From Candidatus Woesearchaeota archaeon (GTDB lineage: Archaea; Nanobdellota; Nanobdellia; Woesearchaeales; GW2011-AR9), in NCBI GenBank assembly GCA_018696595.1, contig JABHQW010000008.1:268522-332521 (forward strand): a stretch of 64,000 nucleotides of DNA, written 5' to 3'. This document shows, piece after piece, positions 7,261 to 64,000 of this stretch. The position numbers were made by a program, and so were the translations under genes. Numbering within the stretch: position 1 is the stretch's first letter; each line of letters begins with the position of its first letter. Under the pieces are notes generated by a model, which was given only the letters and a program-made list of their open reading frames with translations, did not search any database and was not told the DNA's origin.

Positions 7261-7299
7261 TATAAATGGCGAAGTATTTACAAGCTAAAAGAGGTTAAA

Positions 7300-7674
7300 A
7301 TGAAAAAAGAATATTTAATCATGTCTGTAGATGATGAGAATGATATCAGAGATTCTATTAAATCCGTTCTTGAAGATGAAGGTTTTAAAGTTGAAACTGC
7401 TAAAGATGGCGCTAGTATGCTTAAAAAGCTAGAAAAAATTAAACCAGACTTAATTCTTTTAGACATTTTAATGCCTGGTTTAACAACTCGAGAAATCATT
7501 ACTGAAGTAAAAAAAAGAAAAATAAAAACTCCTGTTATCTTTTTAACAGTAGTTAGATTAGCAGAAGCTACTAAAAAGCATGTTATTAAGGGTAATATGG
7601 TTGATTACATTGAGAAACCATTTGATAATAAAGATTTGATTAAAAGAGTTAAAAGAGCTCTGAAAACAAAATGA
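7300..7674 (+). CDS. Single-domain response regulator (CheY-like receiver)
   Basis: MSVDDENDIRD with acidic pocket. Phospho-acceptor context LILLDILMPG. Conserved K in IEKPFD. Confidence 0.85.
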   Translation: MKKEYLIMSVDDENDIRDSIKSVLEDEGFKVETAKDGASMLKKLEKIKPDLILLDILMPGLTTREIITEVKKRKIKTPVIFLTVVRLAEATKKHVIKGNMVDYIEKPFDNKDLIKRVKRALKTK

Positions 7675-10095: not shown

Positions 10096-10100
10096 TTTAG

Positions 10101-11993: not shown

Positions 11994-12390
11994 CGTAAGT
12001 TCTTAAAATTCTTTTGATTGCACTAGCATTACTTCCTGCTGCAGAAACGAACGTGCTAACTCCTAATTTTGCAAATAATTCTTCATTTTTTGGTTTTCTT
12101 ACTAAAGGAACAACTTTTTGTACTTTCTCTGATTTTCCAATTTGTGAAATCATTAAGTTAGTAGTATCATCACCAGTTGCAACCACTAAAGCATCAACTT
12201 TATCAATTTCTGCTTCTTTTAAAATAGAAATATCTGTACCATCACCATGAATGACTAAAGCGTTAGTTTTTTGCGCTAACTCTTTAGCACGGATTTCATC
12301 TTTTTCAACAAGAGTAACTTCCATTTCCTTTTCAAATAGTTTTGCTAGAGTTAGGCCAGTTTCCCCGCCACCAACAATAATAATTTTCAT
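11953..12390 (-). CDS. TrkA-N (NAD-binding Rossmann, K+ transport regulator) domain protein
   Basis: MKIIIVGGGETGLTLAKLF Rossmann motif. 145 aa. Overlaps the 5' end of the downstream coiled-coil gene. Confidence 0.75.
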   Translation of the reverse strand: MKIIIVGGGETGLTLAKLFEKEMEVTLVEKDEIRAKELAQKTNALVIHGDGTDISILKEAEIDKVDALVVATGDDTTNLMISQIGKSEKVQKVVPLVRKPKNEELFAKLGVSTFVSAAGSNASAIKRILRTYGDARIIAQFGEGD

Positions 12391-15722: not shown

Positions 15723-18344
15723 CTATTCAATCTCAAATCGAAGTATAGCAGCAATGCCGCCTAAATCTCTAAGTTGTGCCCCTTCTCTAGTTTCTGTAGA
15801 AATAATCCTAACTTCTGCACCACCTGCTTGTGCCTTCTCTTCCAAATCAAAAATCTTATTTTCAGGAATACTCTCTGAAATTAGTAAAATGTCAACTGCG
15901 GCCATTTCTAAAGCTTTCAATGTTTCTTTCTCCCCATAAGTTGCTTTTTTGGGCGTATCTCTAAGAGTGCCTAAGAATTGTTGCATAATTTTTTTCTCGT
16001 GAGCAATTTCTTCTTCTGATAAAAGGTCTTCAGATTTTTCTAATAATTCTTGCAATCCAAAATCTCCGGTATACGATAAATCTTTAGTACCAATAATTTT
16101 TTTCTTTACATCTCCAGTAATATAATCTTTATTCATAAAATCGTTAATCGTAACACCGGGGCCACCAATAATAATGCCTTTCAAATCTTTTCCAAGAGGT
16201 AAGAATTGATCTTTCATATATTCTGCAATTTTTTTAAAATGATCTTTAGCAGCACCTTCTCTTAGACGAGCGAATCTTTGAGCAGAATTATGAACTATTA
16301 ATCCATTTGCTATGAAGTTTTGATTGCCAACAGAAATGTCAATCATTTCAGTTTCTTCATTTCTTTTTTCAATATTAGCAATCTTAACCGGCAAAATGGG
16401 GCTATTATAAACTTCTTCTAATTGTGTATATAATTTCTTATCTTTAACACAAGACAAGATAGAACTCTTAAATGTTTGTTTACTCATCATTCTCTCATTT
16501 CTAAAGAAGTTTGTTACTTTTGGAAATTGGTTTGTGTTGTAACCAGCGTTTTCAATTATCTTTCTGATTTTCGAACCAGAAGCAATAATTTGTCTGACAT
16601 TACTCTTATTTGATCTTAAATCAATACTCTTTTCTAATTTTTGTGATTTTTTATTACAAGTAAATCCAATTTGTTCTTTAAATAATTCTAAAGATTTCTT
16701 TTCTGTAATGTCAATTGTAAAGCGAGGATTATCACTTAGTGGATTTCTTCTATTGTCATATTCATGTAAAGAAGAAATGATTCCAAATCTTAACAAAGCC
16801 ATTTGTATTTGTTGTGCCAATATTTTGTTATTTATTCCAAATGCAGCCTGTTTTCTTTGAGAAACATAACCTTCTGCATCAAAAAATCCTTTCACAAAAC
16901 TTGCAAGAATTTTATTTGGAGAATTTAATATTTTTTCGGGAATTAAAGAATCTCTTGCTTTTTTTATTTCTGGAAATTCTGTTTGAATTAATCTAACTAA
17001 TGGTCTACTTGTAAATCTTAACTGGTGGTAATTCTTACTTTCTCTAAATTTATAACTACAATTCAGATCAAAGTGTTGATCAAACAATTCTTTATAATGT
17101 AAAGCAAGATCTTTACTTTGTTCAAAGAAAGTAATTCTATCTTTTTCTATACAACCATCACCCATTAGATAACCTAAAAATTGAGCGAGATTTGCTTCAA
17201 GAAGAACCGGCAATTTGATGTTTTTGTATAGTTCAGGAGTAGTATAGTTATTTAGGAAATCATAAAAATCAATTTCTAAGGCCGCACAAAGCTTTTGCAA
17301 AGGAATTCTTCCAATATTTCTTTTTCCTTTTTCGTAAGTTGATATTGCTGTTTGGGTAAGCCCAGTAAGTTTTGCAACATCTCTCTGAAATAAACTTTTT
17401 TCTTCTCGTTTTCTCTTGATTTGGTTTTGTCCTTCTTTATTTATTTTGAAAGAATTATAATATTGAACTGCTTTGATGGTTTGAAGTTTACCTTCTACTT
17501 CTATTTTTTCAGGCATAATTAGAAAATCTCCTTCTTGAAGTTCTTCAGCGGCTTTTTCTTTGATTCCATTCTCAGTTTTCACAAAGAAAATATGGTCTTT
17601 AGAAGATTCTACTTGTAGTCTTGGATATTTTGTTGTGATCTTGTAAACTTCATGTTTTTTGGCATTCCATTTATCTGTAATTGGTGAATCTTTAATTGAG
17701 TGACTTTCCATAACCATACTCTTGAGCACAATTGGGTTATGGGAATTTTCAATTTTTAAGATGTCTCCCTGAGTGGATTGAATTAATGTTCCTTTCATAC
17801 AACATTGTCCACCTGCTTTAGTTTTTCCAGGAACTTCCGAATGTGTTTTTTGCATTGGGACAATAGATTTTCCTTTCAACAGAGCAATGGTTGCATCCCT
17901 TCTATCCATAACAACAAGACCATAAACTTCTTTGTTAACCATCATTTCTTCTAATAAATCAGTTACAAAGTTTTTATCACAACGATAAATACGTGTGTTT
18001 AATTGGATTGGTGGTTCAATACTCCAAACTCGAACATCTTGTTTACCTTCTCCTGCGGCAACGTTTCCAGAAAAAACCGCAAAACCATTTTCTGGTGTGT
18101 TACCAATAGTTCTTAAATGTTGAATCATTTTTTCCAAAGCATTCTGGACATTCTTTCTAGTAGCAGCAGATTTAATGTTTGAAGCGGTTCCTTGCTCTTC
18201 TGCTAGATGTTGAATAATTTTTGTCATATCATAACCAGAAGGGATGTAAACTGTAACAAACTCTGTATGTGGAGCCTTATGGCTACGTAACTCACTTACT
18301 ATTTTTTTCAGTTTCAGTTTCTCTTGTGCGGTTATCGCTGCCAT
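15723..18344 (-). CDS. prf1: Peptide chain release factor aRF1 (eRF1 homolog) interrupted by an intein
   Basis: Exteins together are about 367 aa, with NIKS-like region and KTKAGGQ|SAQRFARLRE. The C-terminus GGIAAILRFEIE is eRF1-like. Confidence 0.9.
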   Translation of the reverse strand: MAAITAQEKLKLKKIVSELRSHKAPHTEFVTVYIPSGYDMTKIIQHLAEEQGTASNIKSAATRKNVQNALEKMIQHLRTIGNTPENGFAVFSGNVAAGEGKQDVRVWSIEPPIQLNTRIYRCDKNFVTDLLEEMMVNKEVYGLVVMDRRDATIALLKGKSIVPMQKTHSEVPGKTKAGGQCCMKGTLIQSTQGDILKIENSHNPIVLKSMVMESHSIKDSPITDKWNAKKHEVYKITTKYPRLQVESSKDHIFFVKTENGIKEKAAEELQEGDFLIMPEKIEVEGKLQTIKAVQYYNSFKINKEGQNQIKRKREEKSLFQRDVAKLTGLTQTAISTYEKGKRNIGRIPLQKLCAALEIDFYDFLNNYTTPELYKNIKLPVLLEANLAQFLGYLMGDGCIEKDRITFFEQSKDLALHYKELFDQHFDLNCSYKFRESKNYHQLRFTSRPLVRLIQTEFPEIKKARDSLIPEKILNSPNKILASFVKGFFDAEGYVSQRKQAAFGINNKILAQQIQMALLRFGIISSLHEYDNRRNPLSDNPRFTIDITEKKSLELFKEQIGFTCNKKSQKLEKSIDLRSNKSNVRQIIASGSKIRKIIENAGYNTNQFPKVTNFFRNERMMSKQTFKSSILSCVKDKKLYTQLEEVYNSPILPVKIANIEKRNEETEMIDISVGNQNFIANGLIVHNSAQRFARLREGAAKDHFKKIAEYMKDQFLPLGKDLKGIIIGGPGVTINDFMNKDYITGDVKKKIIGTKDLSYTGDFGLQELLEKSEDLLSEEEIAHEKKIMQQFLGTLRDTPKKATYGEKETLKALEMAAVDILLISESIPENKIFDLEEKAQAGGAEVRIISTETREGAQLRDLGGIAAILRFEIE
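16287..17804 (-). mobile_element. Intein (506 aa) inserted between GGQ and S of aRF1. Contains a LAGLIDADG homing endonuclease and an XRE-type HTH.
   Basis: Starts with Cys directly after GGQ. Ends ...NQNFIANGLIVHN followed by the Ser +1 residue. LAGLIDADG motifs LGYLMGDG and GFFDAEG. HTH LFQRDVAKLTGLTQTAISTYEKG. Confidence 0.85.
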
Positions 18345-39246: not shown

Positions 39247-40047
39247 ATGGCTTTTGAAAATGTATTAGATCCGGTGTTTAATCCGATACTACAACCTTTA
39301 CTAAATAAGAGTCCGTTCTTGGCAATCTTAATCTTGGCTGTAGTAATTTCTGTAGTAATTGTTATTGTTTACAAATTAATGACCGATCAAGTCAAAATGA
39401 AAGAAATGAAAGATCAGCAGAAAGAATCTCAAAAGAAGATGAAAGAACTTAAAGATAATCCTGCTGAGATGATGAAAGTTCAGAAAGAAGCAATGAAAAT
39501 GAACATGGAATATATGAAAAAGTCTTTCAAACCAACATTAGTTACTATGATCCCTATCTTATTAATCTTTGGCTGGATGGCTGGTCACTTTAGTTATGAT
39601 CCTATTCTTCCTGGTGAAACTTTTAATATTACCGCAGATTTCTTGGAAGGTATCAAGGGAGAAGCCGAACTTATCCCGGATGCTGGGATGGAACTGATTA
39701 GTGAAGCCAAACAAGAAGTATCTGGGGCTAAAGTGAATTGGAAACTGAAAAGCACGGCCGGAGAGCATGCCATTAAAGTTAAAGTCGGTGATTCGATCGA
39801 AGAAAAAGAAATTTTAATTACAACAGAAGTTAAGGTTGCTCCCATATCTAAAGCGTATGAACATTCAGACATTAAATCTATTACAATTAATTACGATCAG
39901 TTAAAACCATTAAATCATTTATTTAGTGATGGTGAAAAACAAGCTAGTTTGTCTATCTTTGGCTGGCAACCTGGTTGGTTAGCTCTTTACATCATATTTT
40001 CATTGATCTTTAGTATGGGATTAAGAAAATTATTAAAGATTTACTGA
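39247..40047 (+). CDS. Archaeal Oxa1/YidC-superfamily insertase (DUF106/EMC3-like) with a C-terminal extension
   Basis: TM, K-rich coiled coil, then TM PTLVTMIPILLIFGWM. It occupies the conserved position downstream of secY. Confidence 0.65.
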   Translation: MAFENVLDPVFNPILQPLLNKSPFLAILILAVVISVVIVIVYKLMTDQVKMKEMKDQQKESQKKMKELKDNPAEMMKVQKEAMKMNMEYMKKSFKPTLVTMIPILLIFGWMAGHFSYDPILPGETFNITADFLEGIKGEAELIPDAGMELISEAKQEVSGAKVNWKLKSTAGEHAIKVKVGDSIEEKEILITTEVKVAPISKAYEHSDIKSITINYDQLKPLNHLFSDGEKQASLSIFGWQPGWLALYIIFSLIFSMGLRKLLKIY

Positions 40048-40097
40048 TTTATTTTTTTAAATATTTAATTTAATATTTAACTTAAGGGAGGGGAAAA

Positions 40098-41234
40098 ATG
40101 ACACATTTTGAGAAGAAAGAAGAAAGTGATTCAACAAGTCACGAAAATAAAAATCATCATGAACACAGTAAACACCATGAACATCATGAACCTAAAACGG
40201 AAGTTTATCACGATCATAAACACAAATCCGAGGTTCATAAACCACATGGCGAGAAAAAGAAAAAAAGTATGAAAGTTAATTTATGGAAAGTTTTTACGGG
40301 AGTATTAGCAATATTATTATTAGTTTCGTTATACTTTAATTTTAGTGGAACTGCTTTTTCTTCAGAAGAAACAGTTGCAACTGAAACTCTTGGATTTGTT
40401 AATAGTGTACTATTACAAGGACAATCAGCAGCAAAGTTGCTAACTATTGAAGAAAAGTCCGGTTTGTATAACATGAAATTAAGCCTTTCTGGACAAGAGA
40501 TTGACAGTTACGTTACTAAAGATGGAGAAATATTCTTCCCACAAGGTTTAATGACTAATGAGGAAGTTGAAACTTCTGATGCTTCTGCTCAGGCAGCCGC
40601 AACTGTTGATGTTCCTAAAACTGATAAGCCAGTAGTCGATTTATTTGTAATGTCACATTGTCCTTACGGAACTCAAGCAGAGAAAGGAATCTTACCAATC
40701 GTAAATTTATTGGGAGATAAAGTTGACTTTGAGTTGAAGTTTGTTAATTATGCAATGCATGGTAAGAAAGAACTTGACGAACAGCTTAACCAATATTGTA
40801 TCCAGAAAGAACAAAATGATAAGTTTAATGCTTATTTGGAATGTTTCTTAGGTGCTGGAGATGGTGAAAGTTGTTTAACTTCTACTGAAGTTGATGTGGC
40901 TAAAATGAAATCTTGCGTTGATAAGGCTGATAAAGAATTTAAGATCTCTGAACTTTTTGCTGATCAAACATCTTGGCAAGGGGGAAAGTTTCCTCAGTTT
41001 AACACCCACGATCAAGAAAATGAGTTGTATGGCGTTCAAGGAAGTCCAACTTTGATTATTAATGGTGTTAAGGTTTCTTCCGCTAGGAGTCCAGCTGCTT
41101 ATTTAGACACCGTTTGTGGTGCTTTCTCAGAGCAGCCTGTTGAGTGTACTGAATCAACTGGGGTAAGCACAGAAACTTACCAACCTGGATTTGGTTACGA
41201 AGCAGGAACAGCTACAGCAGCAAGTTGTGGTTAG
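40098..41234 (+). CDS. Membrane-anchored thioredoxin-fold (DsbA-like) protein with a His-rich N-terminus
   Basis: N-terminal HHEHSKHHEHHE. One TM. CxxC-like SHCPYG. GSPTLIINGVKV is thioredoxin-like. Confidence 0.5.
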   Translation: MTHFEKKEESDSTSHENKNHHEHSKHHEHHEPKTEVYHDHKHKSEVHKPHGEKKKKSMKVNLWKVFTGVLAILLLVSLYFNFSGTAFSSEETVATETLGFVNSVLLQGQSAAKLLTIEEKSGLYNMKLSLSGQEIDSYVTKDGEIFFPQGLMTNEEVETSDASAQAAATVDVPKTDKPVVDLFVMSHCPYGTQAEKGILPIVNLLGDKVDFELKFVNYAMHGKKELDEQLNQYCIQKEQNDKFNAYLECFLGAGDGESCLTSTEVDVAKMKSCVDKADKEFKISELFADQTSWQGGKFPQFNTHDQENELYGVQGSPTLIINGVKVSSARSPAAYLDTVCGAFSEQPVECTESTGVSTETYQPGFGYEAGTATAASCG

Positions 41235-48589: not shown

Positions 48590-48696
48590 GTTGGTAAGAA
48601 AAAGGTTAAGATATAATAAGTTTTGTGTTTGTGCTTAATCAACCCCTTTACAAAACAGAATACTTTATATATAAAAAGTATTTCTTTTATAGTAAA

Positions 48697-49908
48697 ATGG
48701 TTACACTAAATAAAAGAGGTCAAGCTGCTGGCGCAGCTGTTTTTCTGGCAGTAGTTGCCGGTTTACTAATTGGATTTATTATTTTAATTCCTCCCGCTGA
48801 GAGGGCAGAACTTTTAGGAGAAGATATTGATGTTATTGATAATAGTGATTCTAGCAGTTCTGATGACGAAATAGAAGAAGCAGTTCCAGAAGCTAATCTG
48901 TTAACTGTTTCTCCAGGAAGAATTGATTATCTTTCGCAGAAAGAGATAGAACATCCCTTGCCCGTTGTCAATATTTATACTAAAACTGAAAGTAAGATTC
49001 TAGCACAAAAAAATGTTGCTTATGCTAAAAATGGTGCATTTTCTAATGAACAAGGCGTGTTTAAGTTTAATGTTCCCGATTTAGACAATACTCAAGATTT
49101 CTTGCTAAATTTTAAAGTAAATGAGATTAAAGGAGACTTAACTGTTGATTTAAATGGTGAAAGTGTTTACAAATCTGCAGTTACTAGTGGTGAATCCTTA
49201 ACAGTAAGTTTTCCTGAAAACTTAATTCAAGAAGAAAATGAACTTATTTTTAGTGCTTCTTCAATCGGGGTTGCATTTTGGGCAACTAACGAAGTTAATT
49301 TAGAAGGACTTAAAGTTGTAGCTGATGTGACTAGTGTTGAAGCACAATCTTCAAAAAATATTTTCTTAGTTTCTGAAGTTGAGAAAAAGAATCTTGAAAA
49401 AGTTGTATTAAGATTTCAACCTGAATGTCAGTACACTGAAGTTGGTAAGTTAGAAATTCTGATTAACGGCAAAGAAATTTACTCTGCGGTTCCCGATTGT
49501 GAATTAGCAATGATTCCGATTGAGTTTTCTTCAGATATGGTTTTCCAAGGAGAGAACGAGATTATCTTTAGAACAAACAGCGGAACTTATATCTTATCGC
49601 ATGTAACAATTGAATCTGAATTGAAAGAATTAGAATATCCAACATATTATTTCGATGTTTCTTACGAACAGTATGAAGATGTAATGTCTGAAAAGAGAAG
49701 AATTCGATTAGAAATGGAATTTGTTGATGTTGTTGTAAGTAAATATGGTGAAGTTGTTTTCAATGGTCACACTAAACATTTTGATACTAAAGAAGTTGAT
49801 TATGTGATTGATCTGAGTGATGATTTAGTACAAGGAACAAATGCATTGAAAGTCAAACCAAAGAAGACGTTAGACATGAGAGAAATTAAGATTGATTTGG
49901 TAAAGTAA
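48697..49908 (+). CDS. Secreted/surface protein with an archaeal class III (type IV prepilin-like) signal peptide
   Basis: MVTLNKRGQAAGAAVFLAVVAGLLIGFIIL: a basic KRG, then Q+1, then a hydrophobic helix. Large beta-rich domain. Start chosen at an internal ATG behind an A/T-rich promoter. Confidence 0.55.
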   Translation: MVTLNKRGQAAGAAVFLAVVAGLLIGFIILIPPAERAELLGEDIDVIDNSDSSSSDDEIEEAVPEANLLTVSPGRIDYLSQKEIEHPLPVVNIYTKTESKILAQKNVAYAKNGAFSNEQGVFKFNVPDLDNTQDFLLNFKVNEIKGDLTVDLNGESVYKSAVTSGESLTVSFPENLIQEENELIFSASSIGVAFWATNEVNLEGLKVVADVTSVEAQSSKNIFLVSEVEKKNLEKVVLRFQPECQYTEVGKLEILINGKEIYSAVPDCELAMIPIEFSSDMVFQGENEIIFRTNSGTYILSHVTIESELKELEYPTYYFDVSYEQYEDVMSEKRRIRLEMEFVDVVVSKYGEVVFNGHTKHFDTKEVDYVIDLSDDLVQGTNALKVKPKKTLDMREIKIDLVK

Positions 49909-49956
49909 AATTTTTTATTTTATTTTTTTATTTATAATTTAACAAAAAAGAGGTTA

Positions 49957-51921
49957 ATGATGGGAAAAGCAGCGGCGATAGGTGGAGCATTAAAGAGCGC
50001 AGGGTCTAAAGTTACTCCTGGATTAACAGGTGCTGGTGCCGGTGCAACAGCTGTAGCAACACAAAGTGCAGCTAAGTCTTTCAGAAACAAAGGTTTCCCA
50101 TTGTTTTTAGCAGCAGTAATTATTTTTATCATTTCACAGGTTCTTGGTCTTTCCGACTTTTATGGTTATGCTTCAGTATTGTTTATGGTCTATTGTGCAT
50201 ATGCTGTTTTTGAAGGACGGGGCGCGTACATCGTAACTATTTTTTGTGTTTGGTATTTCTTATTAGGGAGAGCTAGCTTAGAAAGTGTTTTATACTATGT
50301 TGTGCCAATTGCTTTAATTGGTTCAATAATTCACGGGTTATTGGGAAAATTTAAAAGCAAAGATACTTTTGCTCATGGTTTTACTGAAGAGATTCTTTAC
50401 GGTCTTGGCGCAATATTAATTTTCTTTCTGGATATTGGTCTGGTTGAAATGGTCTCTCAAGGAGTCGTAAATTTACCTTACATTCTTACTGAAATCTTAA
50501 GGTTAATTCCTTTGTGGGGGTATGTGGGTTTGTTTGTGATGATTCAAGACGAAGAGAAAGGAGAAAAAAGTTTCTTTATTACAGTCGCAAAGTGGCTTGG
50601 GATTGCATACCTCGTTTCTATTATTATCTTCGCTTCTAGTATTGCTTCAGGGGCTGAAGGGGAAGAATTACTTCCAGGTATAGAACAATTTATTGAGGCA
50701 AAGGAAACTGCTCAAGGTAAATTTGCGAAGACAGAGAACCCTGCTTATTCTAACCTTAAATGTGTGGTCCAAGGAAGATTTAACGATCTGCCGGTTTGTA
50801 TAAAAGATCGTCAAGATGATTCTAAAAGAAAAGTGGCTTGTGAAGCAGAAGGTTTCCCAGAAGGAACTACTAGTTTTAATGAATGTACTGCCGAGTTAAA
50901 AGAACTTGATAATAAGAATATCAATGTTGTTGGTTTTAACGATAAAACAATTAAAGAACCAATTACTGCAGAATTAATTCCTAAAGAGGCAAAGAAGTAC
51001 GATTTACTTCACGAGAAAGGACAAGCAATTAAAATTCCAATAGATTTGGAAATAAAGAATCCTCGTTTAGATCCATTTGAAGTTTATGTTTCATGTAACA
51101 TTACCACCCAGAGAAGGAAAACTTCTATTGGCGAAGCAGAAATTGTGGGCTTTGAAAATAAGGGGGAAAATAATGAGAAAGGAAGCAAATGGAAACATTT
51201 TACCATTTATAAAACAGAATCATCTATTCCTTTAATTTGTCAACCTACTAAGTTAGATTACGAATTAAATGAAGAAACGAGAATATTTAATGGTTCTTAT
51301 AATGTTGTTTTTTATGTTGAATTTAAAGGAGTAAACACAACTTCTAGATTAGAAAGAAGTTTTTTCAATGACTTAAAGATTTACGATGAAATTAATAAAA
51401 TTAAAGACTTAACATCTGAACAAGAACAAGAATTAAGGGGAAAAGCCAGAAAAGATTTTGAAGAAGAGATGAAAGAATTCCTTAACCTTAAATATTCTTC
51501 AATAGAAAGTCGTCATTCTACTGGTCCTGAAGATTTCGCTAGAATCGATTTTTCTTTTGGTCCTTCAGAAGGAGAACCGATTATTGAAACTTCAGATTCC
51601 ATTTCTTTTGAAGCAGATGTGGATAATTTAGGTAATGGAAAAATAACAAACATCAATAGTTATAATTTTATTGGTTTTAATGGGGTGACTTTTTCTGGTT
51701 CTGGTTGTAGTCTAAGTGGATCTTTAAATGTCCCTCAGAAATTTATGAAATCTTCAGGAATCCCCATACATCTCTGTTGGGTTGACAATCTTCCTGAAGA
51801 AATGGCTAACCCTGCTTTGGGAGACGAAACAGTTGAATTCCGAGCAGAATTGGAGTACGATTACTTAATTGAAAGAGAAGTGGGAATAACTGCGGGAGTG
51901 ATTGATGATAAAAGCAAATAA
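49957..51921 (+). CDS. Large membrane protein with about 7 N-terminal TM helices and a 450-aa Cys-containing extracellular domain
   Basis: Hydropathy profile. No known motifs. Co-oriented with, and 49 nt downstream of, the pilin-like gene. Confidence 0.55.
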   Translation: MMGKAAAIGGALKSAGSKVTPGLTGAGAGATAVATQSAAKSFRNKGFPLFLAAVIIFIISQVLGLSDFYGYASVLFMVYCAYAVFEGRGAYIVTIFCVWYFLLGRASLESVLYYVVPIALIGSIIHGLLGKFKSKDTFAHGFTEEILYGLGAILIFFLDIGLVEMVSQGVVNLPYILTEILRLIPLWGYVGLFVMIQDEEKGEKSFFITVAKWLGIAYLVSIIIFASSIASGAEGEELLPGIEQFIEAKETAQGKFAKTENPAYSNLKCVVQGRFNDLPVCIKDRQDDSKRKVACEAEGFPEGTTSFNECTAELKELDNKNINVVGFNDKTIKEPITAELIPKEAKKYDLLHEKGQAIKIPIDLEIKNPRLDPFEVYVSCNITTQRRKTSIGEAEIVGFENKGENNEKGSKWKHFTIYKTESSIPLICQPTKLDYELNEETRIFNGSYNVVFYVEFKGVNTTSRLERSFFNDLKIYDEINKIKDLTSEQEQELRGKARKDFEEEMKEFLNLKYSSIESRHSTGPEDFARIDFSFGPSEGEPIIETSDSISFEADVDNLGNGKITNINSYNFIGFNGVTFSGSGCSLSGSLNVPQKFMKSSGIPIHLCWVDNLPEEMANPALGDETVEFRAELEYDYLIEREVGITAGVIDDKSK

Positions 51922-52774
51922 AATTATTGGGATTGTACTTCTTTCCTTATTTCTATTAGGTTGTGGTTCTGGTGGTGGAACAAAACAAATAGATTATAAT
52001 TTTAAGCAAGGCACTTCTGGATTACAAGTAAGTTTTATGGATAATGCTCCTCCAAAAAAGATTTACGAAAACTCTAATTTTAATGTTATTCTTAAAATGG
52101 AGAATAAAGCTGCTTATGATTTGGTTAATGGCCAAATAACTTTATCTGGGATTAATCCTCAATATTTTGTTTTTGAAAAAAAGACTGAAACCTTTTCTAT
52201 TTTAGAAGGACGGAACTTATATCTTCCAGATGGAGGGGTCTCTTATATTGAATTTCCTGCAAAATCCGAGAAATTATTTTTAAATGCAGAAAGTTATCAA
52301 GGAAAGTATTTTCTAAACATTGATTTTGATTCAACAATGGAATTTGTTGATACTATTTGCATTAATCCCAACTTATATTCAGTATACGATGCAGGGTGTC
52401 AAATTGAAGATCGAAAATCTTATTCTGGTCAAGGTGCTCCTCTTGCAGTTGTTGAAGTTGAAGAAATAATTCATCCTGAAACTGTTGGTGGGCAAGTCGA
52501 GTTTAGATTTTTGTTAAGAAATAGAGGCCAAGGAGAAGTTGAATATATTGAACTAACTAAGGCTATGCTCGGTAGCAGTGAATTTGATGAATGTAAGTTT
52601 AAAGAAGGATACTTTGATAGTAAAAAAGTATTACTGACAAAACAGAACCAAGAAGCATTATTAGTTTGTAAAACACATTTAAAAGAACAGGGTTCTTATA
52701 CTACAACTGTATTGCTTGATTTTAATTATCATTATGAAATGCAAGAAGTTCATAATCTAATGCTTTATGAATAA
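51905..52774 (+). CDS. Putative lipoprotein/secreted protein (LLGC lipobox-like signal)
   Basis: MIKANKIIGIVLLSLFLLGCGSGGG. Overlaps the upstream gene end by 17 nt. Confidence 0.5.
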   Translation: MIKANKIIGIVLLSLFLLGCGSGGGTKQIDYNFKQGTSGLQVSFMDNAPPKKIYENSNFNVILKMENKAAYDLVNGQITLSGINPQYFVFEKKTETFSILEGRNLYLPDGGVSYIEFPAKSEKLFLNAESYQGKYFLNIDFDSTMEFVDTICINPNLYSVYDAGCQIEDRKSYSGQGAPLAVVEVEEIIHPETVGGQVEFRFLLRNRGQGEVEYIELTKAMLGSSEFDECKFKEGYFDSKKVLLTKQNQEALLVCKTHLKEQGSYTTTVLLDFNYHYEMQEVHNLMLYE

Positions 52775-52829
52775 TTTTTAGTTCTCTAGAATCAGAAAGA
52801 ATTTAAATGATTACTTTTTCTGAGATGGG

Positions 52830-53336
52830 ATGGTGATGGGGAAAACAACATTCTTAGTAGTTTTATTGTTATCATTCAGTTTTGTGCAAGCTGGATTTTA
52901 TGATGGTTTCTTTGATCGGTTTGATGATCCTACATTAAATGTTAAATTGGAACAGCAACTATTATTTTCTTCTCCATTTGATTCTCTTGATGTTCCTGTT
53001 GTTGCTGAGAAAGTCGTAGTTCCGGTTACTAAGAAAATTATTGTTCCAGTTACTAAAGTGAAAAAGGTAGAAATAACACTTCCCCCTATCATTAAAATAA
53101 CTGATTCTGGGTTTGAACCAAAAGAAGTTAAGATTCAGAAAGGTCAGACTGTTGTCTGGAAAAATGAAAGGAAGAGGGTTAATTCTTTGGTTTACGGTTT
53201 AAGAGAGATTGTTGACATGAAAAGCGAATTTATTCAACCAGGGGATGATTTCAGTTGGACTTTTGAAGAGAAAGGAGAGTTCACTTATATTGATGCAGTA
53301 GTTATCGGTAGGGTTGGCAAGGTTATTGTTGAATAG
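52830..53336 (+). CDS. Small secreted protein with a cupredoxin-like beta-sandwich signature but no Cu ligands
   Basis: Signal peptide MVMGKTTFLVVLLLSFSFVQA. KEVKIQKGQTVVWKNE and FSWTFEEKGEFTY resemble cupredoxin strands, but the His/Cys/Met ligands are absent. Confidence 0.45.
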   Translation: MVMGKTTFLVVLLLSFSFVQAGFYDGFFDRFDDPTLNVKLEQQLLFSSPFDSLDVPVVAEKVVVPVTKKIIVPVTKVKKVEITLPPIIKITDSGFEPKEVKIQKGQTVVWKNERKRVNSLVYGLREIVDMKSEFIQPGDDFSWTFEEKGEFTYIDAVVIGRVGKVIVE

Positions 53337-53376: not shown

Positions 53377-54321
53377 ATGAAAATCGCAATCTTAGGTGGG
53401 GGAAGTTGGGGTACAGCTTTAGCAGTACACTTAGCTAAAAATGATAATGGTATTAAAGTCTGGGAATTCTTTGAAGAACAGGCTAAAGAAATGCAAGAAG
53501 GAAGAGTTTGCAAATTACTCCCAGAAGCAAAGTTGCCAGAGAACATCTTTGTTTCTCATAAAATTGAAGAAGTGTTATCTGATTTTGAATTATTGTTATT
53601 AGTGGTTCCTTCAAATCATGTTGAGAAAACAATTGAACAAGCTAAAGAGTTTATTCAAGAACAAGCAGTAATTATTTGTTCAAAAGGATTTGGTTCAGAT
53701 TTAAAATTCTTAAGTGATGTTGTCAAAGAAAAAATTTCTGGAGAAGTTTATTGTTTATATGGTCCAACTCATGCGGAAGAAGTTTGTAAAGACATGTATT
53801 CTGGAATTGTGTTGGCTGGTGGAAAAGGTAAAGAAGGACTTCAGAAAGTTATTGCATCTGACAGTTTGAAAGTAGATTTAACTGATGATCTAATTGGCGT
53901 GCAAGTTGCTGCTGCTTTGAAAAATATTTTAGCAGTATTTGTTGGCGTACTTGACGGCATGGGTTTAGGAGATAACGCTAAGGCTTACATCATGACTCGT
54001 GGCTTGCAAGAGATTAAGGATGTTGGTGTTGCTCTAGGAGCGAAAGAAGAAACGTTCTACGGTCTTGCAGGCATTGGTGACATGATTGTAACATCTACAA
54101 GTCCACATTCTAGAAATAGGTCTGTGGGGGTAGAAGTTGGTAAAGGTCGTAAATTACAAGAAGTAATCGATGAAATGGCAATGGTTGCAGAAGGAGTAAC
54201 AACGTTGAAAGAAGCCATTGGTCTGAAAGAGAAGACGGGATTGGAATTACCTTTGATTTCTGGTTTGTATGAAATTTTGTTTGAAGGAAAAGATCCGCAG
54301 GAAATACTGAAAGGAATTTGA
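53377..54321 (+). CDS. gpsA: NAD(P)H-dependent glycerol-3-phosphate dehydrogenase (bacterial-type GpsA)
   Basis: MKIAILGGGSWGTALA Rossmann. GPTHAEEV. SPHSRNRSVG signature. Confidence 0.85.
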   Translation: MKIAILGGGSWGTALAVHLAKNDNGIKVWEFFEEQAKEMQEGRVCKLLPEAKLPENIFVSHKIEEVLSDFELLLLVVPSNHVEKTIEQAKEFIQEQAVIICSKGFGSDLKFLSDVVKEKISGEVYCLYGPTHAEEVCKDMYSGIVLAGGKGKEGLQKVIASDSLKVDLTDDLIGVQVAAALKNILAVFVGVLDGMGLGDNAKAYIMTRGLQEIKDVGVALGAKEETFYGLAGIGDMIVTSTSPHSRNRSVGVEVGKGRKLQEVIDEMAMVAEGVTTLKEAIGLKEKTGLELPLISGLYEILFEGKDPQEILKGI

Positions 54322-54683: not shown

Positions 54684-55034
54684 ATGAATGATAAAATCTG
54701 GGCTACGATGAATGTTTCTCTAGTTTTGGTAGCATTGATTTTAACTTTAACTTTGTTTGAAGTAGAACTGCCTACGTTAGGGCAAGCGAAATATGCTTTA
54801 GACAAATCAGAACCTTTATGCATAGTTAATTGGCAAGATTCTTACAATGAATGGAATGATCTAGATTCTTGTTGTGTTGAAGCAAGGAAACAGTTAGATT
54901 GTTCTGAAGGAGAATGGTATTATCAAGACAAAACCGTAGAGTGGCAATGTAAAACCGGTTCTGGAAATGTATTAAAGTACTGGTTGAATGATAAAGCTTA
55001 CAATTATTGCAGACAATTGAATATTTGGAGATAA
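54684..55034 (+). CDS. Small TM-anchored Cys/Trp-rich extracellular protein, hypothetical
   Basis: TM VSLVLVALILTLTLF, then 8 Cys. Confidence 0.4.
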   Translation: MNDKIWATMNVSLVLVALILTLTLFEVELPTLGQAKYALDKSEPLCIVNWQDSYNEWNDLDSCCVEARKQLDCSEGEWYYQDKTVEWQCKTGSGNVLKYWLNDKAYNYCRQLNIWR

Positions 55035-56135
55035 ATGGCTAAGAAAAAACAAAAAAAGAGTAGGTGGAGTTTACAGCAGAAAGTTTTCCTAGTTCTAATT
55101 ATCATTGTTTTAACTTTAGGGAGTTTAAATGTTGCTAAAGCTAAAGGTTGGCTAATTCCTGAACAACCAGAAATCATAATTGTCGATAATACTATTTTAT
55201 TAGATTCATTAACTTTAGAACAAAAAATTGGTCAGATGGTTATTGTTCACGGAGGGTTATGGAATTTAAAACCATGGCAAGATATGCAACTTGGTGGCAT
55301 ACATCACTTCGCGATGCAAACTCCTGAATTATTTCAAGATATAACTGCAAAGTTTCAAGAAGATATGCAAATCCCATTCTTTGTTACTGCAGACTTAGAA
55401 GGTTGTTGGAGTCCTTTTTCTAATTTCAAACAGTTTGTTCCTGTTAATGAAATCAACACAACTGGTGAAGCTTTTGAGAAAGGTTCGATTGAAGGAAAAT
55501 ATTTGAAAGAACTTGGATTTAATTTTAATTTTGCTCCTGTTGTTGATTTAGATGACCAAATTTGGAACTGCCGTGCTTTCCTTGGCAATGAAACTCAAAT
55601 AACTCAATTAGCAGAAGCTTATGCTATTGGATTACAAAACGAAGGTATTATTGCTACTGCAAAACATTATCCTGGAAACACTTTAGTGGCGAATGATCCA
55701 CATAAAGGATTAGTTATAGCGGAGATTAGTTCAGAAGATCAATATCCTTACAATTACTTTTCGGAGAAAGGAAATATTCAAGCAGTTATGGTGACCCACA
55801 TAATCGCTTTTGGTGAAGTAGATTCTAAGGGGGTCCCTTCTGTGGTTTCTGAAGAAGCTGTTGGACAACTTAAGGATGAATATTCTGGGTTAATCGTTAC
55901 TGATGATACAATGATGTTGGGGTTAAGAAATTTTTTCCCTTCCACCGAGGATATGTATGTTGCTGTGTTTAAGGCTGGGAATGATTTAATTATTAACTTT
56001 GATGAAGATCCCAATGAAATTAAACACATGATTGAAGTTGTTCAGGGGGCGGTTCTTGCTGGAGAAATTCCTCAAGAACAAATTGATGATTCTGTAAAAA
56101 GAATTTTGGAAGCGAAAGGCTTTATTGTTGGGTAA
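55035..56135 (+). CDS. Glycoside hydrolase family 3 N-terminal domain protein (NagZ-like beta-hexosaminidase), membrane-anchored
   Basis: KHYPGNTL...DPHKG and GLIVTDDTMMLG match the GH3 catalytic blocks. N-terminal TM. Confidence 0.6.
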   Translation: MAKKKQKKSRWSLQQKVFLVLIIIVLTLGSLNVAKAKGWLIPEQPEIIIVDNTILLDSLTLEQKIGQMVIVHGGLWNLKPWQDMQLGGIHHFAMQTPELFQDITAKFQEDMQIPFFVTADLEGCWSPFSNFKQFVPVNEINTTGEAFEKGSIEGKYLKELGFNFNFAPVVDLDDQIWNCRAFLGNETQITQLAEAYAIGLQNEGIIATAKHYPGNTLVANDPHKGLVIAEISSEDQYPYNYFSEKGNIQAVMVTHIIAFGEVDSKGVPSVVSEEAVGQLKDEYSGLIVTDDTMMLGLRNFFPSTEDMYVAVFKAGNDLIINFDEDPNEIKHMIEVVQGAVLAGEIPQEQIDDSVKRILEAKGFIVG

Positions 56136-56190: not shown

Positions 56191-56913
56191 TCATTTCTTA
56201 TTAGTTTTTAAGTGTAATGTTTTATTATCTATCTCTATTATTTCTTCTTGTTTTATTTTCTGCCATTCTATGTTTGGTAATTGCGGCAATTCTTCTGAAC
56301 TCACAATCAAAAAATCTTTTTTCTTTCCCATTTTCATTTGGTAATACTTTGGTTGGTTATTCTTTTTAATGAACACATAAGATTTATTTCTATTAGCTAG
56401 GATAAAATTTATTCCAGTGTAATTTTGATATTTGTTAAGATTATTTCTAATGGCTTCTATTATATTTTTTTCTTTTTTATTCTCTGTTAGAATCGAACCA
56501 AACAAATGTTCGGAATCTGTGTCTCCTTTAACCGTAAATTTAGAATCATAATAAATTTTATCTCTAACAGTGCCATTATGGCAGAAAATAAATTCATTAA
56601 GTTGGAATGGGTGTGTATTTTCCATCGAAATTTTCCCAATTGTCACTTTTCTAGCATGTAATATCACTAAATTTGTTTTTACGTTTCTGAATTTATTAAC
56701 TTTGGGATCTTTGAAAATAGGTTTTGTTGATTTTTCTACTATCCACCTATTATTCTCTAAATAAGCAATCCCCCAACCTCCGTCATGTTTCCAGTTGCCA
56801 TTCTTGTTTTGATTTCTTTCGTGTTTTTCATTTTCGTCATTGGCCATAGTGACCAAACCATCTAGAAGTAGATTAACATTTACATTTCCAACCGCAATTA
56901 ACATCCGACACAT
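56191..56913 (-). CDS. Class II (Ntn) glutamine amidotransferase-like protein (YafJ/EgtC-type)
   Basis: N-terminal MCRMLIAVG (Cys2 nucleophile). LHARKVTIGKISMENTHPF. FCHNGTV. Confidence 0.7.
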   Translation of the reverse strand: MCRMLIAVGNVNVNLLLDGLVTMANDENEKHERNQNKNGNWKHDGGWGIAYLENNRWIVEKSTKPIFKDPKVNKFRNVKTNLVILHARKVTIGKISMENTHPFQLNEFIFCHNGTVRDKIYYDSKFTVKGDTDSEHLFGSILTENKKEKNIIEAIRNNLNKYQNYTGINFILANRNKSYVFIKKNNQPKYYQMKMGKKKDFLIVSSEELPQLPNIEWQKIKQEEIIEIDNKTLHLKTNKK

Positions 56914-58124
56914 TGTTCAAGGTAACTTTGTTGTTTGTGGGGTTGGTAATCTAAACTTTTTAAATATTCCTGTCTCATAAACAATTGGCCCTGGGCTGCG
57001 GCTTTCTCTGGGTTGGGGTACGGTCCTTTTTCTTTTAAATGTTCCATGATTTTATTTGATGGGTTCATTCTTGTTTGGATCATACCAAAAATTGGTGTTA
57101 AGTACGGAAGATCTTCTTCTGGCAAACCTTCGGATGAGAATTTTAATGTGTCTGATAAATATTGAGCAACATTATTTGACATTAACCCATATTTGATAGC
57201 TTCTGTTTCAAGGGCTTTAAGCGTTGTATAATTTGGTAACACTACTTCTTTATTATCAAATGAATAAACCCCATCTGTTCCTGATATTCTAACTGGGATG
57301 TCTTCTTTTGTTATTCTGTCATTACATCCTTTATACAATGCAATCATGCCTAAAGAGATATCCAAAGGGGTTGTATCAAAACTTCTAATTTCCCACGTGC
57401 CGGTTTCTCCAATTGAATCTCTTTTTCTAATTGGGTGATATCCTGTGCTTTCTGGTTTGAAAAGTTCTTTGAATGCCTCCCTGTCTGTACCTGGTGCGTT
57501 CAACCATTGGTTGAATCTAATGTTATCTCTTATATTAATTTCTTCAATTGATTGAACATAAGGCTGAAGTTGAGCATGTAATGGATAATCCATAAACATT
57601 TGATTTCGTGTCGCATTGATCCTGTGGCAATTAACTCCTTCATTAATTCCATTTAACATTGGTGAGGTTGATGTAGTAGCATAAGATAATGGGTCTAATG
57701 CTGTGAATAACCACATTTGTTCTAAAAGATGATTTGGTGATTGTGAGAAATGGCCATGTATTCCTGATATTCTTCTTTTTAAATCGTTGGCTTCCTGGCC
57801 AATTATTGGGATATAAAGACTCCACTTTTCTTTGTCGTGTCTTTGTTGACTTTCCCCTCCTCCTAATTCACTAACTGTACTAACAGAAATATCATGTTTA
57901 TCACAAATCTCTTCTAATAAATTGAGTTTTGGAAGAATTCCCCTATGTAATTCTTTAACTGTGTTTGCTGGATCTGAGTTCACTTCTACTCTGGCATGGT
58001 TGGATTCATCTACAATTGATCCATCATTTAAAGGATCTTCAATTATTTCTTTTGCCCTATTGGCTAAATAACCTTGCTCATCAATTAAAGCAAATTCATA
58101 TTCTATCCCTGTTGTTGAACTCAT
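56898..58124 (-). CDS. Carboxylate-amine ligase, GCS2 (glutamate-cysteine ligase family 2, YbdK-like)
   Basis: N-terminal TTGIEYEFALID is the GCS2 hallmark. About 400 aa. Overlaps the downstream amidotransferase gene by 16 nt. Confidence 0.6.
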   Translation of the reverse strand: MSSTTGIEYEFALIDEQGYLANRAKEIIEDPLNDGSIVDESNHARVEVNSDPANTVKELHRGILPKLNLLEEICDKHDISVSTVSELGGGESQQRHDKEKWSLYIPIIGQEANDLKRRISGIHGHFSQSPNHLLEQMWLFTALDPLSYATTSTSPMLNGINEGVNCHRINATRNQMFMDYPLHAQLQPYVQSIEEINIRDNIRFNQWLNAPGTDREAFKELFKPESTGYHPIRKRDSIGETGTWEIRSFDTTPLDISLGMIALYKGCNDRITKEDIPVRISGTDGVYSFDNKEVVLPNYTTLKALETEAIKYGLMSNNVAQYLSDTLKFSSEGLPEEDLPYLTPIFGMIQTRMNPSNKIMEHLKEKGPYPNPEKAAAQGQLFMRQEYLKSLDYQPHKQQSYLEQCVGC

Positions 58125-58346
58125 CTTATCATAATTTTTTTATTTTATACTTTTGATTTTTCTTATCTTTTAGTATAGGTAATAGTACACTAATATATAA
58201 ATATTTCTGCAATGGAGTGCTTAAATGGTCTCTTAATCTATTTATTGGTTAATAAAATGGCCAATCCTTAATTCTAAAGAATAATTATTATATGGATTGG
58301 ATTTAAAAGCTAAAAATTGCCTTTATTTGTATTTTGGCAGTCATAA

Positions 58347-58946
58347 TTAAGAGAATTCAATCATTCGGTGATCACGAAATTTTTTTGTTTCCAAAGTATA
58401 AAACGCTTCTTCCATCAATTTTTCGGGTACAGATATACCACCTAAAGCAGGGTCAAAAATATGATAATAATGATTGGAATGTCCAAAAACAACAATAAAA
58501 TTGGAGGTATTTCTTTTTTCATTTCTAATTGGTTTAGTATTTACTCTAAGAAGAAGAATCTTATTTTGATTTAATTTACTTTTAATGTTTACAAGATTGA
58601 TGGTTTTCTCCTCGATTTTAACACCTTGTCTTTCTGCTTCTTTAAGGTGTTGTTTGGAAGAAAACTTTGCTTCTTCAATCTCTTCTTTTTTATATCTATA
58701 AAAACGATAATCTGGGAAGTTATACTCTTTTTTTTCTACAATTACTTTTAGGTTTAATCCTTGTTCTTTTGCATAAGTGGCTAAAGCAAAAATAGAAGAA
58801 CCTCTTGTGGGTAAATTAACTGTTTTTCTCCAAATCTCAAACTCTTTTTCTTTAGTTGCTTTTATTCTTGAATCTAAAGTGGCAAGGATAGTAAGTAATG
58901 AAGAAGCTGCTGTTGTGAAGGGTGTTGTTTGATTGTGGGTTTGCAT
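58347..58946 (-). CDS. Peptidase C39-like/papain-fold domain protein with the catalytic Cys replaced (Q...TTAASS), His/Asp retained
   Basis: QTTPFTTAASSLLTILATL aligns to the C39 Q...CGxAAL block. VVFGHSNHYYHIFDPA aligns to the His/Asp block. Confidence 0.35.
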   Translation of the reverse strand: MQTHNQTTPFTTAASSLLTILATLDSRIKATKEKEFEIWRKTVNLPTRGSSIFALATYAKEQGLNLKVIVEKKEYNFPDYRFYRYKKEEIEEAKFSSKQHLKEAERQGVKIEEKTINLVNIKSKLNQNKILLLRVNTKPIRNEKRNTSNFIVVFGHSNHYYHIFDPALGGISVPEKLMEEAFYTLETKKFRDHRMIEFS

Positions 58947-63726: not shown

Positions 63727-64000
63727 TGTTAGAGTTAGTTGGGACATTATTTTTGTTGTTGTTAACACTTATTGGTTTTATTGGTTACAACAAATGTTGG
63801 GGAGAGAGGGTATTATTTTTTGTTTACTTGACGTATTTAGTAAACTTAGTTATGATTTGGTTTTACGATGGAAGATTGTCATTGATTTTGTTGTTCCTAA
63901 CTTTGTTAGCGTTCTTAATGGCAGTACCTAAGCGAGCATGTTGCGGTTCTAGTTGTCAAGCTACAGAAAAACCTTCTGAGGAACCACATAGTGAAGTGTT
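63727..64000 (+). CDS. Membrane protein, N-terminal fragment that runs off the window end
   Basis: Hydrophobic ORF MLELVGTLFLLLLTLIGF..., open to the end of the window. Confidence 0.3.

Follow-up and report, generated by a model that had tools for sequence, protein, structure and literature searches.

We find that a cell-surface gene cluster in a 64,000-nt stretch of a Candidatus Woesearchaeota archaeon genome (assembly GCA_018696595.1, contig JABHQW010000008.1; the whole stretch is called the window below) has at its core a three-gene module, g1-g2-g3, characteristic of the order. The existence of this module and its location at the cell surface are close to certain. As to what it does, we tentatively favor, at a little under an even chance, the reading that g1-g2-g3 is a glycan- or murein-directed envelope complex through which DPANN archaea of the Woesearchaeales type make contact with bacteria. 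The original prediction for this region had described four co-oriented, tightly spaced genes led by a protein with a class III (prepilin-like) signal peptide. All four open reading frames (ORFs) are there, as listed below; as a conserved unit, the set of four had to be reduced to g1-g2-g3, with g4 present in only 13-15 of the ~62 related loci that carry the trio.

48697-49908, + strand: g1, a 403-aa ORF and the most conserved member of the module; begins MVTLNKRGQAAGAAVFLAVVAGLLIGFIILIPP.
49957..51921, + strand: g2, a 654-aa ORF with a low-complexity cytoplasmic N-terminus, ~7 transmembrane (TM) segments and a large extracellular C-terminal region.
51905..52774, + strand: g3, 289 aa (290 aa if started from TTG 51902), with lipobox L-L-G-C and the lipobox Cys codon at 51962-51964.
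52830..53336, + strand: g4, a 168-aa secreted cupredoxin-like protein with a signal peptide; a lineage-specific accessory.

Gene order was followed in two sets of related loci. Scanning a single genome for each GTDB species gave 71 loci (the genome set), with local hidden Markov model (HMM) searches for gene order, and a scan of Joint Genome Institute (JGI) metagenomes with a 560-aa g1 subfamily (6-sequence alignment) gave 79 much more diverged loci (the diverged set). In the genome set, g1 and g2 stood together in 68/75 loci and g3 followed in 62; in the diverged set, the g1-g2 order was present in 56/81 loci, with g3 in 41. Loci without the full g1-g2-g3 order were mostly truncated contigs. 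The trio was kept in >100 relatives (~130 loci), and the synteny that the original prediction had named as a check on itself was thereby found for the three genes. In the window, g3 overlaps g2 by 20 or 17 nt (from TTG 51902 or from 51905), and 45/62 loci have the two genes overlapping by exactly 4 nt; translation of g3 is coupled to that of g2. In deeper lineages, 31 diverged-set loci carry three g3 paralogs, and the module then comprises up to five genes.

Upstream, g1 (+) is divergent from a Pelota gene (-), a pair that recurs in 52 genome-set and 64 diverged-set loci. The intergenic region common to the two genes and the spacer between g1 and g2 hold the following elements, both read from the sequence.

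48664..48680, + strand: TATA-like box ctttatatataaaaagt, ~29 nt upstream of the g1 ATG; putative promoter element.
49909..49956, + strand: T-rich g1-g2 spacer, in which GAGGT, resembling a Shine-Dalgarno sequence, precedes the g2 ATG.

No homolog supports the in-frame GTG at 48625, and alignments favor the ATG at 48697, which, with the TATA-like box at this distance, would fit a leaderless start. In ~7 loci unrelated genes (e.g. a methyltransferase) lie between g1 and g2, and g1 stands alone in four loci; we therefore regard g1 as a separable transcription unit. The g1-g2 spacer may be a partial terminator or an internal promoter. In one locus (L012 6806-12897), three other small lipoproteins (lipoboxes IIGC, LAGC) and a 1317-aa secreted protein take the place of g3 behind g2; to judge from this locus, the lipoprotein slot of the module appears replaceable.

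The lineage of the window is syntenic throughout this region (Pelota, TrmB, PheRS, GpsA, glutaredoxin, GH3), so that gene order alone is weak evidence of a functional link. In the diverged set, GpsA, glutaredoxin, GH3 and g4 are absent from all 81 loci, yet the g1-g2-g3 order persists. Because the trio stays together where these downstream neighbors are missing, its linkage is stronger than background synteny. The original prediction had recognized no known family in the cluster, and this held: g1-g3 gave no match in Pfam, NCBIfam or PHROGs and zero significant PDB sequence matches (family profiles A1, A3, A7). It is a real, tightly organized surface cluster made of unmatched families.

The connection to murein comes from homologs of g2 and g3. 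We searched 46 diverse g2 homologs singly against Pfam, followed by long g2 variants and long g3 variants, and six g2/g3 homologs were found to carry C-terminal peptidoglycan-hydrolase domains.

L115: g2 plus SLT (45.6 bits, gathering score 21.3).
L141: g2 plus SLT plus fn3 (SLT 24.2 bits, gathering score 21.3).
L128: g2 plus Peptidase_M23 (60.1 bits, gathering score 28.7).
L126: g2 plus an M23-related domain, from a local jackhmmer search seeded with the L128 domain.
L140: g2 plus a glucosaminidase-like domain, below the gathering score.
L158: g3-family lipoprotein plus SLT (71.5 bits; ES...GLMQ motifs).

All six fusion loci carry g1 and five lie downstream of an archaeal Pelota gene (L158 has no Pelota match); these are therefore not bacterial contigs. 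Since three catalytic types were recruited independently and at the same position, the complex probably works where murein is. The window module is, judging from these homologs, associated with murein-hydrolase surface proteins rather than itself a member of that class. The original prediction had suggested that the cluster would be relevant if the organism were an episymbiont, and the hydrolase fusions strengthen this link. Giant extracellular murein transglycosylases with a proposed action on bacterial hosts have been described in Woesearchaeota and Pacearchaeota (PMC8204110; PMC9723730; PMC10936187; PMC12352652), and peptidoglycan hydrolases are prominent in Nanoarchaeota (PMC12352652). The present module is not described in these four papers; its families may be among the unannotated families of the 'Module 98' of that literature.

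The g1 protein is organized as follows.

48697..48720, + strand: basic leader MVTLNKRG (residues 1-8), ending at a putative EppA-like cleavage point, G8|Q9.
48721..48792, + strand: conserved hydrophobic helix QAAGAAVFLAVVAGLLIGFIILIPP (residues 9-32), followed by a PP-x-ER-x-x-LL motif.
48817..48864, + strand: acidic low-complexity tether (residues 41-56), predicted to be disordered (predicted local distance difference test score, pLDDT, <50); aligned columns variable and gappy.
48880..49905, + strand: three tandem beta-jelly-roll domains of the galactose-binding-domain/carbohydrate-binding module (CBM) type (~residues 62-212, 213-310 and 311-403).

More than 270 close homologs of g1, ~400 aa each and 53-70% identical, were found, the named ones all from Woesearchaeota/Nanoarchaeota. 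A g1 profile search that covered 1.84 billion representatives at a cut-off of E<=1e-3 gave a family of 1184 representative clusters, including the 560-aa subfamily; its few named members are Woesearchaeota. Scans of g1 against Pfam and NCBIfam gave nothing above threshold, the sole match being to the GH127 middle domain (E 0.05, below the gathering score), and no curated CBM or lectin family passed. An AlphaFold2 (AF2) model built from a 116-sequence alignment (mean pLDDT 85) has a helix at residues 7-30 that stops at the Pro-Pro, a short helix at 33-39, a disordered segment at 41-56 and then three beta domains with a jelly-roll fold. The large beta-rich, adhesin-like domain of the original prediction thus reappears in the model as a beta-rich, lectin-like ectodomain. 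Each jelly roll carries an (L/I/F)NG motif. There are conserved aromatic motifs, AFWxTN and FPTYYF, and the invariant aromatics are W195 and the FPTYYF motif. On the basis of this modeled fold, g1 may bind glycans or murein. In the N-terminal part, A14, F27, P32/P33, R36 and L40 are invariant or nearly so; the helix probably acts as a membrane anchor, or as an H-domain if g1 is processed. The 560-aa variants of g1 (L080 4495-6177, P0233, P0245 and others) have ~160 aa inserted between the second and the third jelly roll, in the form of two Cys-rich repeats (CG..DG.CP..CD...D.DCCF...YWC) that contain many invariant Cys/Asp; the insert has no Pfam match.

The N-terminus of g1 raises the question of processing by a prepilin-type peptidase. 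Across the family it consists of a variable 3-10-residue leader, K/R-(K/R)-G/A-Q, an Ala/Gly-rich hydrophobic helix, Pro-Pro and x-E-R-x-x-L-L. Among 116 homologs Q9 is invariant and G8 is >90% conserved, residues 1-5 being variable in both sequence and length, and a [KR][GAS]Q motif is present in 121/150 family representatives and 128/151 locus homologs. In the window protein, [KR][GA] stands right before the H-domain (MVTLNKRG|QAAGAAVFLAVVAGLLIGFIILI), and g1 is the only window ORF with a class-III-like N-terminus. Behind the helix, the sequence shows no cleavage site of class I (AxA-type). The site resembles the KGQ/RAQ sites of EppA substrates in Methanococcus, where Gln at +1 is required (PMC4371748). 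The class III DUF361 signature is defined by the motif QxSxExxxL (PMC2910488); g1 reads QAAGAAVFL, with no Ser at +3 and no Glu at +5, and gave no match to the Pfam class III signal (DUF361) at E<=1. A FlaFind-style regular expression (positions +2 to +4) matched 30/150 representatives, and the window g1 fails at +4 (Gly). Remote members of the family have charged/polar spacers of up to ~12 residues between the KRG motif and the helix. Of the class III signal originally predicted, the K-R-G-Q and the hydrophobic helix therefore stand as family-wide features, and the EppA signature proper does not.

These features bear on an alternative that we consider unlikely, a type IV pilin-like role for g1 (as a minor pilin, a tip pilin or a bindosome-like protein): g1 would be cut by FlaK/PibD/EppA, its ATPase and platform would be encoded elsewhere and g2/g3 would be accessory or anchoring proteins. 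The family-wide [KR][GA]Q directly before the H-domain, its identity with the EppA sites and the lack of a class I site all speak for it. All-beta, FlaFind-positive proteins of 250-550 aa are regarded as putative minor pilins (arCOG02911; PMC4858521), and sugar-binding proteins of Sulfolobus carry class III signals, yet are not pilins (PMC2910488). The AF2 model speaks the other way, as it has no pilin module: no alpha1-C packs on a globular domain, and the helix of ~24 residues runs into a disordered linker. The missing DUF361 match and QxSxExxxL motif, the spacers in remote members and the low number of representatives passing the FlaFind-style pattern point in the same direction.

The genomic surroundings argue against a pilus too. 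The original prediction had considered a novel attachment or appendage system, and as an appendage it was not sustained: neither the window nor the ~12 kb past its end encodes a PilB/PilC-type ATPase or platform (T2SSE, T2SSF) or an A24 peptidase, these families are not among the conserved neighbors in the 71 genome loci, and they are not adjacent to the module in 74/81 metagenome loci. Among 5369 ORFs of ~150 fetched loci, none encodes a membrane protein with a GxGD[VIALFM]K motif. No other class-III-like protein was found in the window or the 71 genome loci, that is, in the main-lineage neighborhoods fetched; the candidates proved to be lipoproteins or to have internal TM segments. Small ORFs upstream of g1 in L004 were ruled out as pilins, having no signal or hydrophobic N-terminus.

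In the remaining 7/81 metagenome loci (L080-L082, L084, L085, L093, L095), a T2SSF-T2SSF-T2SSE operon adjoins the module in convergent orientation. Two of these loci, L080 and L081, were reached via the distant g3 relatives P0198 and P0191 and show the operon at length.

L080 13064-21344 and L081 12513-21332: type IV filament operon, convergent with the module (560-aa g1, g2 and three g3 paralogs).

The operon encodes two T2SSF, a T2SSE (weak PilB3_C match), a 385-aa protein, a 335-344-aa class III protein with a textbook N-terminus (KKA|FTYLLV... or KRG|FTYLLV...) and a ~900-aa VWA protein. Relatives of the organism thus have type IV filament systems, which is a further point in favor of the pilin alternative. 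Since the adjacency is confined to one lineage of close relatives, it is weak evidence for a functional tie, and jackhmmer searches with the L080 T2SSE, T2SSF, 385-aa and 344-aa proteins gave nothing in the genome set. flaB/H/I/J/K have been reported in most Woesearchaeota metagenome-assembled genomes of one lake (PMC11606122), in agreement with the L080/L081 operon and likewise favorable to the pilin alternative; a preprint according to which type IV pilus parts are missing in DPANN disagrees with it.

The g2 protein is polytopic. The 7 TM helices plus Cys-rich ectodomain of the original prediction were recovered as seven helices in the secondary structure of an AF2 model (residues 34-228, DNA 50056-50640) and as invariant Cys in an ectodomain of ~420 aa (residues 229-654). 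Eight cysteines are invariant among close homologs, and four (C380/C428/C584/C607) are so family-wide. The TM region is poorly conserved (FLDxG, PWW), and the protein as a whole evolves fast, its homologs being 14-37% identical, and 14-30% across the wider family. The model was built from a 5-sequence alignment and reached a pLDDT of 46.6. Reading g2 as a divergent prepilin peptidase was ruled out, as it has no GxGD motif and no A24 match, and profile matches to Flycatcher1, Piezo and pentameric ligand-gated ion channels (pLGIC; E 1e-4 to 1e-2) were dismissed as artefacts of TM composition.

A polytopic protein flanked by anchored ectodomains could also be an uptake system, in which g2 would let fragments of glycan or muropeptides through, as a channel or permease, and g1 and g3 would be tethered substrate-capture proteins. 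The architecture of membrane protein plus tethered binding proteins fits, binding proteins with class III signals have a precedent in Sulfolobus, a gene for a NagZ-like GH3 lies nearby (see below) and DPANN archaea rely on scavenging (PMC8204110; PMC9723730). We nevertheless rate this alternative as very improbable, as no ATPase or other energy-coupling partner is conserved nearby, the poorly conserved TM region of g2 holds one conserved acidic residue (in FLDxG), the channel matches in PDB profiles are marginal (E ~1e-4) and typical of TM composition, and neither g1 nor g3 has a solute-binding-protein fold.

The third member, g3, is lipoprotein-like and overlaps g2, as had been predicted. Its lipobox (LFLLGC) includes C21, which is invariant in 49 homologs (35-52% identical), and distant paralogs keep a lipobox as well (e.g. 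LTGC, LIGC). The family is also marked by the motif YSGQGAPLAV and by two more pairs of conserved Cys. In hhalign comparisons, the C-terminal domain of g3 aligned with the C-terminal domain of g2 (probability 78%, E 1.8e-5), from which we conclude that g2 and g3 share a beta-sandwich module; no relationship of g3 to g1 was seen. Signal peptidase II is unusual for archaea. A contig (L161) with an identical 312-aa protein and the gene order and product lengths of the window encodes a 160-aa Peptidase_A8 (signal peptidase II, LspA-like; L161 7936-8418), which corresponds to ~0.7-1.2 kb past window position 64000. This gene would imply bacterial-type lipoprotein processing, and its place just beyond the window end makes genuine processing of g3 plausible.

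Downstream of the trio, g4 matches the description as a small secreted cupredoxin-like protein without copper ligands. Its Pfam scores lie just below gathering (Cupredoxin_1 24.4 bits, gathering 27; Copper-bind 20.5, gathering 21.2), and its sequence has zero Cys and zero His and hence no copper ligands; g4 is cupredoxin-like in fold only and cannot coordinate copper in the usual manner. A role for g4 as a redox partner was ruled out on account of the missing ligands and its patchy distribution. Next to g4 lies a gene for GpsA, a bacterial-type NAD-dependent glycerol-3-phosphate dehydrogenase (window 53377-54321, + strand), which matches both the N-terminal and the C-terminal domain of the family, as well as the C-terminal domain of bacterial GPD, and is a conserved neighbor in 37 related loci. 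Bacterial lipid genes have been reported in Woesearchaeota (PMC8204110), with which the window GpsA agrees. Two further genes, outside the core, are possible functional neighbors.

54684..56135, + strand: a 116-aa Cys-rich membrane-anchored protein, then a TM-anchored GH3.

The GH3 gene lies 1.7 kb downstream of g4, and its product matches the Pfam N-terminal domain with E 8e-34. Its closest solved relatives are the GH3 beta-N-acetylglucosaminidase 6k5j, YbbD/NagZ of B. subtilis and LpqI of M. tuberculosis; YbbD/NagZ and LpqI are murein-recycling enzymes. This similarity suggests an extracellular trimming enzyme for muropeptides or chitooligosaccharides in the archaeon. The pair of the 116-aa protein and GH3 occurs in 18 loci of the window lineage and in zero loci of the divergent set, and its link to the module is for that reason only suggestive.

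The glycan- or murein-directed complex that we favor has its basis in the gene order, the translational coupling, the membrane and secretion signals, the jelly-roll fold of the g1 model and the hydrolase fusions of homologs. In such a complex, g1 would be inserted N-in/C-out, possibly after first being trimmed behind Gly8 by a prepilin-type peptidase, and its 24-residue helix would hold three CBM-like jelly rolls outside the cell on a flexible acidic tether. g2 would be the platform, with 7 TM helices in the membrane and a large ectodomain held by disulfide bonds, and g3, in one copy here and three in deeper lineages, would be a lipid-anchored partner sharing a beta-sandwich domain with g2. 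Together they would form a membrane-anchored, glycan-directed assembly, whose likeliest target would be bacterial peptidoglycan bound by g1. The assembly would hold the archaeon onto the bacterial cell wall, and the wall would be cleaved locally where g2/g3 carry SLT, M23 or glucosaminidase domains; neighboring secreted enzymes, such as the NagZ-like GH3, might then trim the released fragments. A stronger form of this proposal makes the module a universal murein-engaging machine of Woesearchaeales, in which an EppA-like-trimmed g1 lectin arm on a g2/g3 platform docks onto and opens sacculi with hydrolases either fused or acting in trans; this we hold to be doubtful.

Several points weigh against a murein-directed complex. 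Part of the gene-order conservation is simply inherited, the Pelota-TrmB-PheRS region being syntenic in the group. The g2 and g3 of the window have no recognizable hydrolase domain in Pfam and NCBIfam scans, such a domain is present in only 6 of the ~300 g2/g3 homologs examined, and the fusions could be additions made in particular lineages that do not reflect the ancestral role. Jelly-roll and CBM-like folds are common and not always those of lectins, and g1 has no CBM match at the sequence level. The central component, g2, is structurally opaque, its model giving no usable 3D fold. Fast divergence is usual for host-recognition proteins, and the conservation of g1 fits a housekeeping role in the envelope at least as well as host recognition.

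Such a housekeeping role is the substance of a further alternative, in which g1-g2-g3 serves the archaeon's own envelope, as an anchor or scaffold of an S-layer or glycocalyx or as a biogenesis or shape factor, and the hydrolase fusions are incidental. It gains from the distribution of the module, which is near-universal, single-copy and fixed beside Pelota, PheRS and the ribosomal superoperon across the order, from the high conservation of g1, from its apparently strong TATA-like promoter and leaderless start and from the lack of catalytic domains in the window g1-g3. FlaF, a monotopic protein with a beta-sandwich that attaches to the S-layer, is a precedent (PMC4425475). S-layer proteins themselves are abundant, lattice-forming and usually fast-diverging; g1, in comparison, is unusually conserved across the order and is tethered by an N-terminal helix. 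A complex that never meets murein would hardly be expected to have recruited three types of murein-specific hydrolase independently. We found no report of murein synthesis in Woesearchaeota in the literature searched, and two of the abstracts found name only Methanobacteriales and Methanopyrales as having pseudomurein. The fast evolution of g2 is also typical of proteins that face other organisms. Taken together, this leads us to rate the housekeeping role as somewhat improbable.

The rest of the window, which has a G+C content of ~31%, also encodes an archaeal ribosomal-protein superoperon with SecY, in addition to Pelota, TrmB and PheRS, and offers several observations of its own. A gene for the release factor aRF1/eRF1 (window 15723-18344, - strand, 873 aa) has Intein_splicing and LAGLIDADG_3 matches between its eRF1 domains and therefore contains an intein. 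At window 8887-12390 (- strand), a KaiC-like ATPase (402 aa), a family-less 629/630-aa protein and a TrkA_N-domain protein are encoded in co-oriented, tightly spaced genes, with a PAS/HisKA kinase and a response regulator nearby (window 5584-7674). An EMC3/TMCO1-family (YidC-like) insertase directly follows SecY and is itself followed by a family-less 378-aa protein (window 39247-41234, + strand). Beyond the GH3, co-oriented GATase_4, GCS2 (carboxylate-amine ligase) and DUF3335 (Peptidase_C39-like) genes occupy window 56191-58946 (- strand); in related loci, GATase_4 recurs in ~26, DUF3335 in 15 and a 408-aa GCS2-sized family in 11.

Woesearchaeota are among the most widespread uncultured archaea, and a near-universal module makes the question of what they attach to experimentally approachable. 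The three proteins would serve as handles, for binding of their ectodomains to sacculi, as antigens for imaging of contact sites and as markers for identification of partners. The module is also a test case for class III (prepilin-type) tethering of non-pilin surface proteins in DPANN, and, with LspA and GpsA encoded nearby, it is one more sign that these archaea have envelope biochemistry of a bacterial type. If the murein-machine reading is true, this very large order of DPANN would usually have bacteria, and not archaea, as its partners; if the module is purely structural, it would still be a core, unannotated part of the Woesearchaeal envelope.

Among known systems, the EppA-processed pilins of Methanococcus (DUF361) and the bindosome proteins of Sulfolobus resemble g1 in having a basic leader ending in [KR][GA], a +1 Gln and a hydrophobic helix, and the bindosome proteins also have a large non-pilin ectodomain behind a linker. 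g1 differs from them in lacking QxSxExxxL/DUF361, an adjacent ATPase, platform or peptidase and a pilin fold, and in having three jelly rolls, not a solute-binding protein, as its ectodomain; its processing is putative. Carbohydrate-binding jelly rolls (the carbohydrate-binding domains of BcsB, the sugar-binding domains of GH2/GH35, PNGase F and CBM6/29/35) share with g1 4-18% identity and no family-level sequence match. In comparison with BcsB, the anchor of g1 is N-terminal rather than C-terminal, flavodoxin-like domains are absent and the cluster has no glycosyltransferase partner. A cellulose-synthase-like reading suggested by the BcsB matches was ruled out, no glycosyltransferase being encoded in or near the cluster.

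The Woesearchaeota murein transglycosylases (PMC8204110) come from the same organisms and share the proposed bacterial-wall target and host attachment, and SLT domains are found on some g2/g3 homologs as well. Each of them is one giant protein, up to 3000 aa long, that is defined by its SLT domain, whereas the module is a three-protein membrane set whose core has no annotated domain. The conjugation systems of Gram-positive bacteria span the wall with a VirB6-like polytopic protein and VirB1-like SLT/M23/CHAP hydrolases, some of them lipoproteins. Like the module, they combine a polytopic protein with a large ectodomain, SLT/M23 domains and a lipoprotein, a likeness that is an analogy only. 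The module differs in having no VirB4/VirD4 ATPase, relaxase, mobile-element context or detected sequence similarity and in its fixed position beside core genes; a conjugation/type IV secretion reading was ruled out on the missing ATPase and relaxase and on this fixed core-genome position. With core families that match no curated family or solved structure by sequence, and no described counterpart, the module appears to lie outside the known kinds, and we rate it so because the nearest analogies each share only single features with it.

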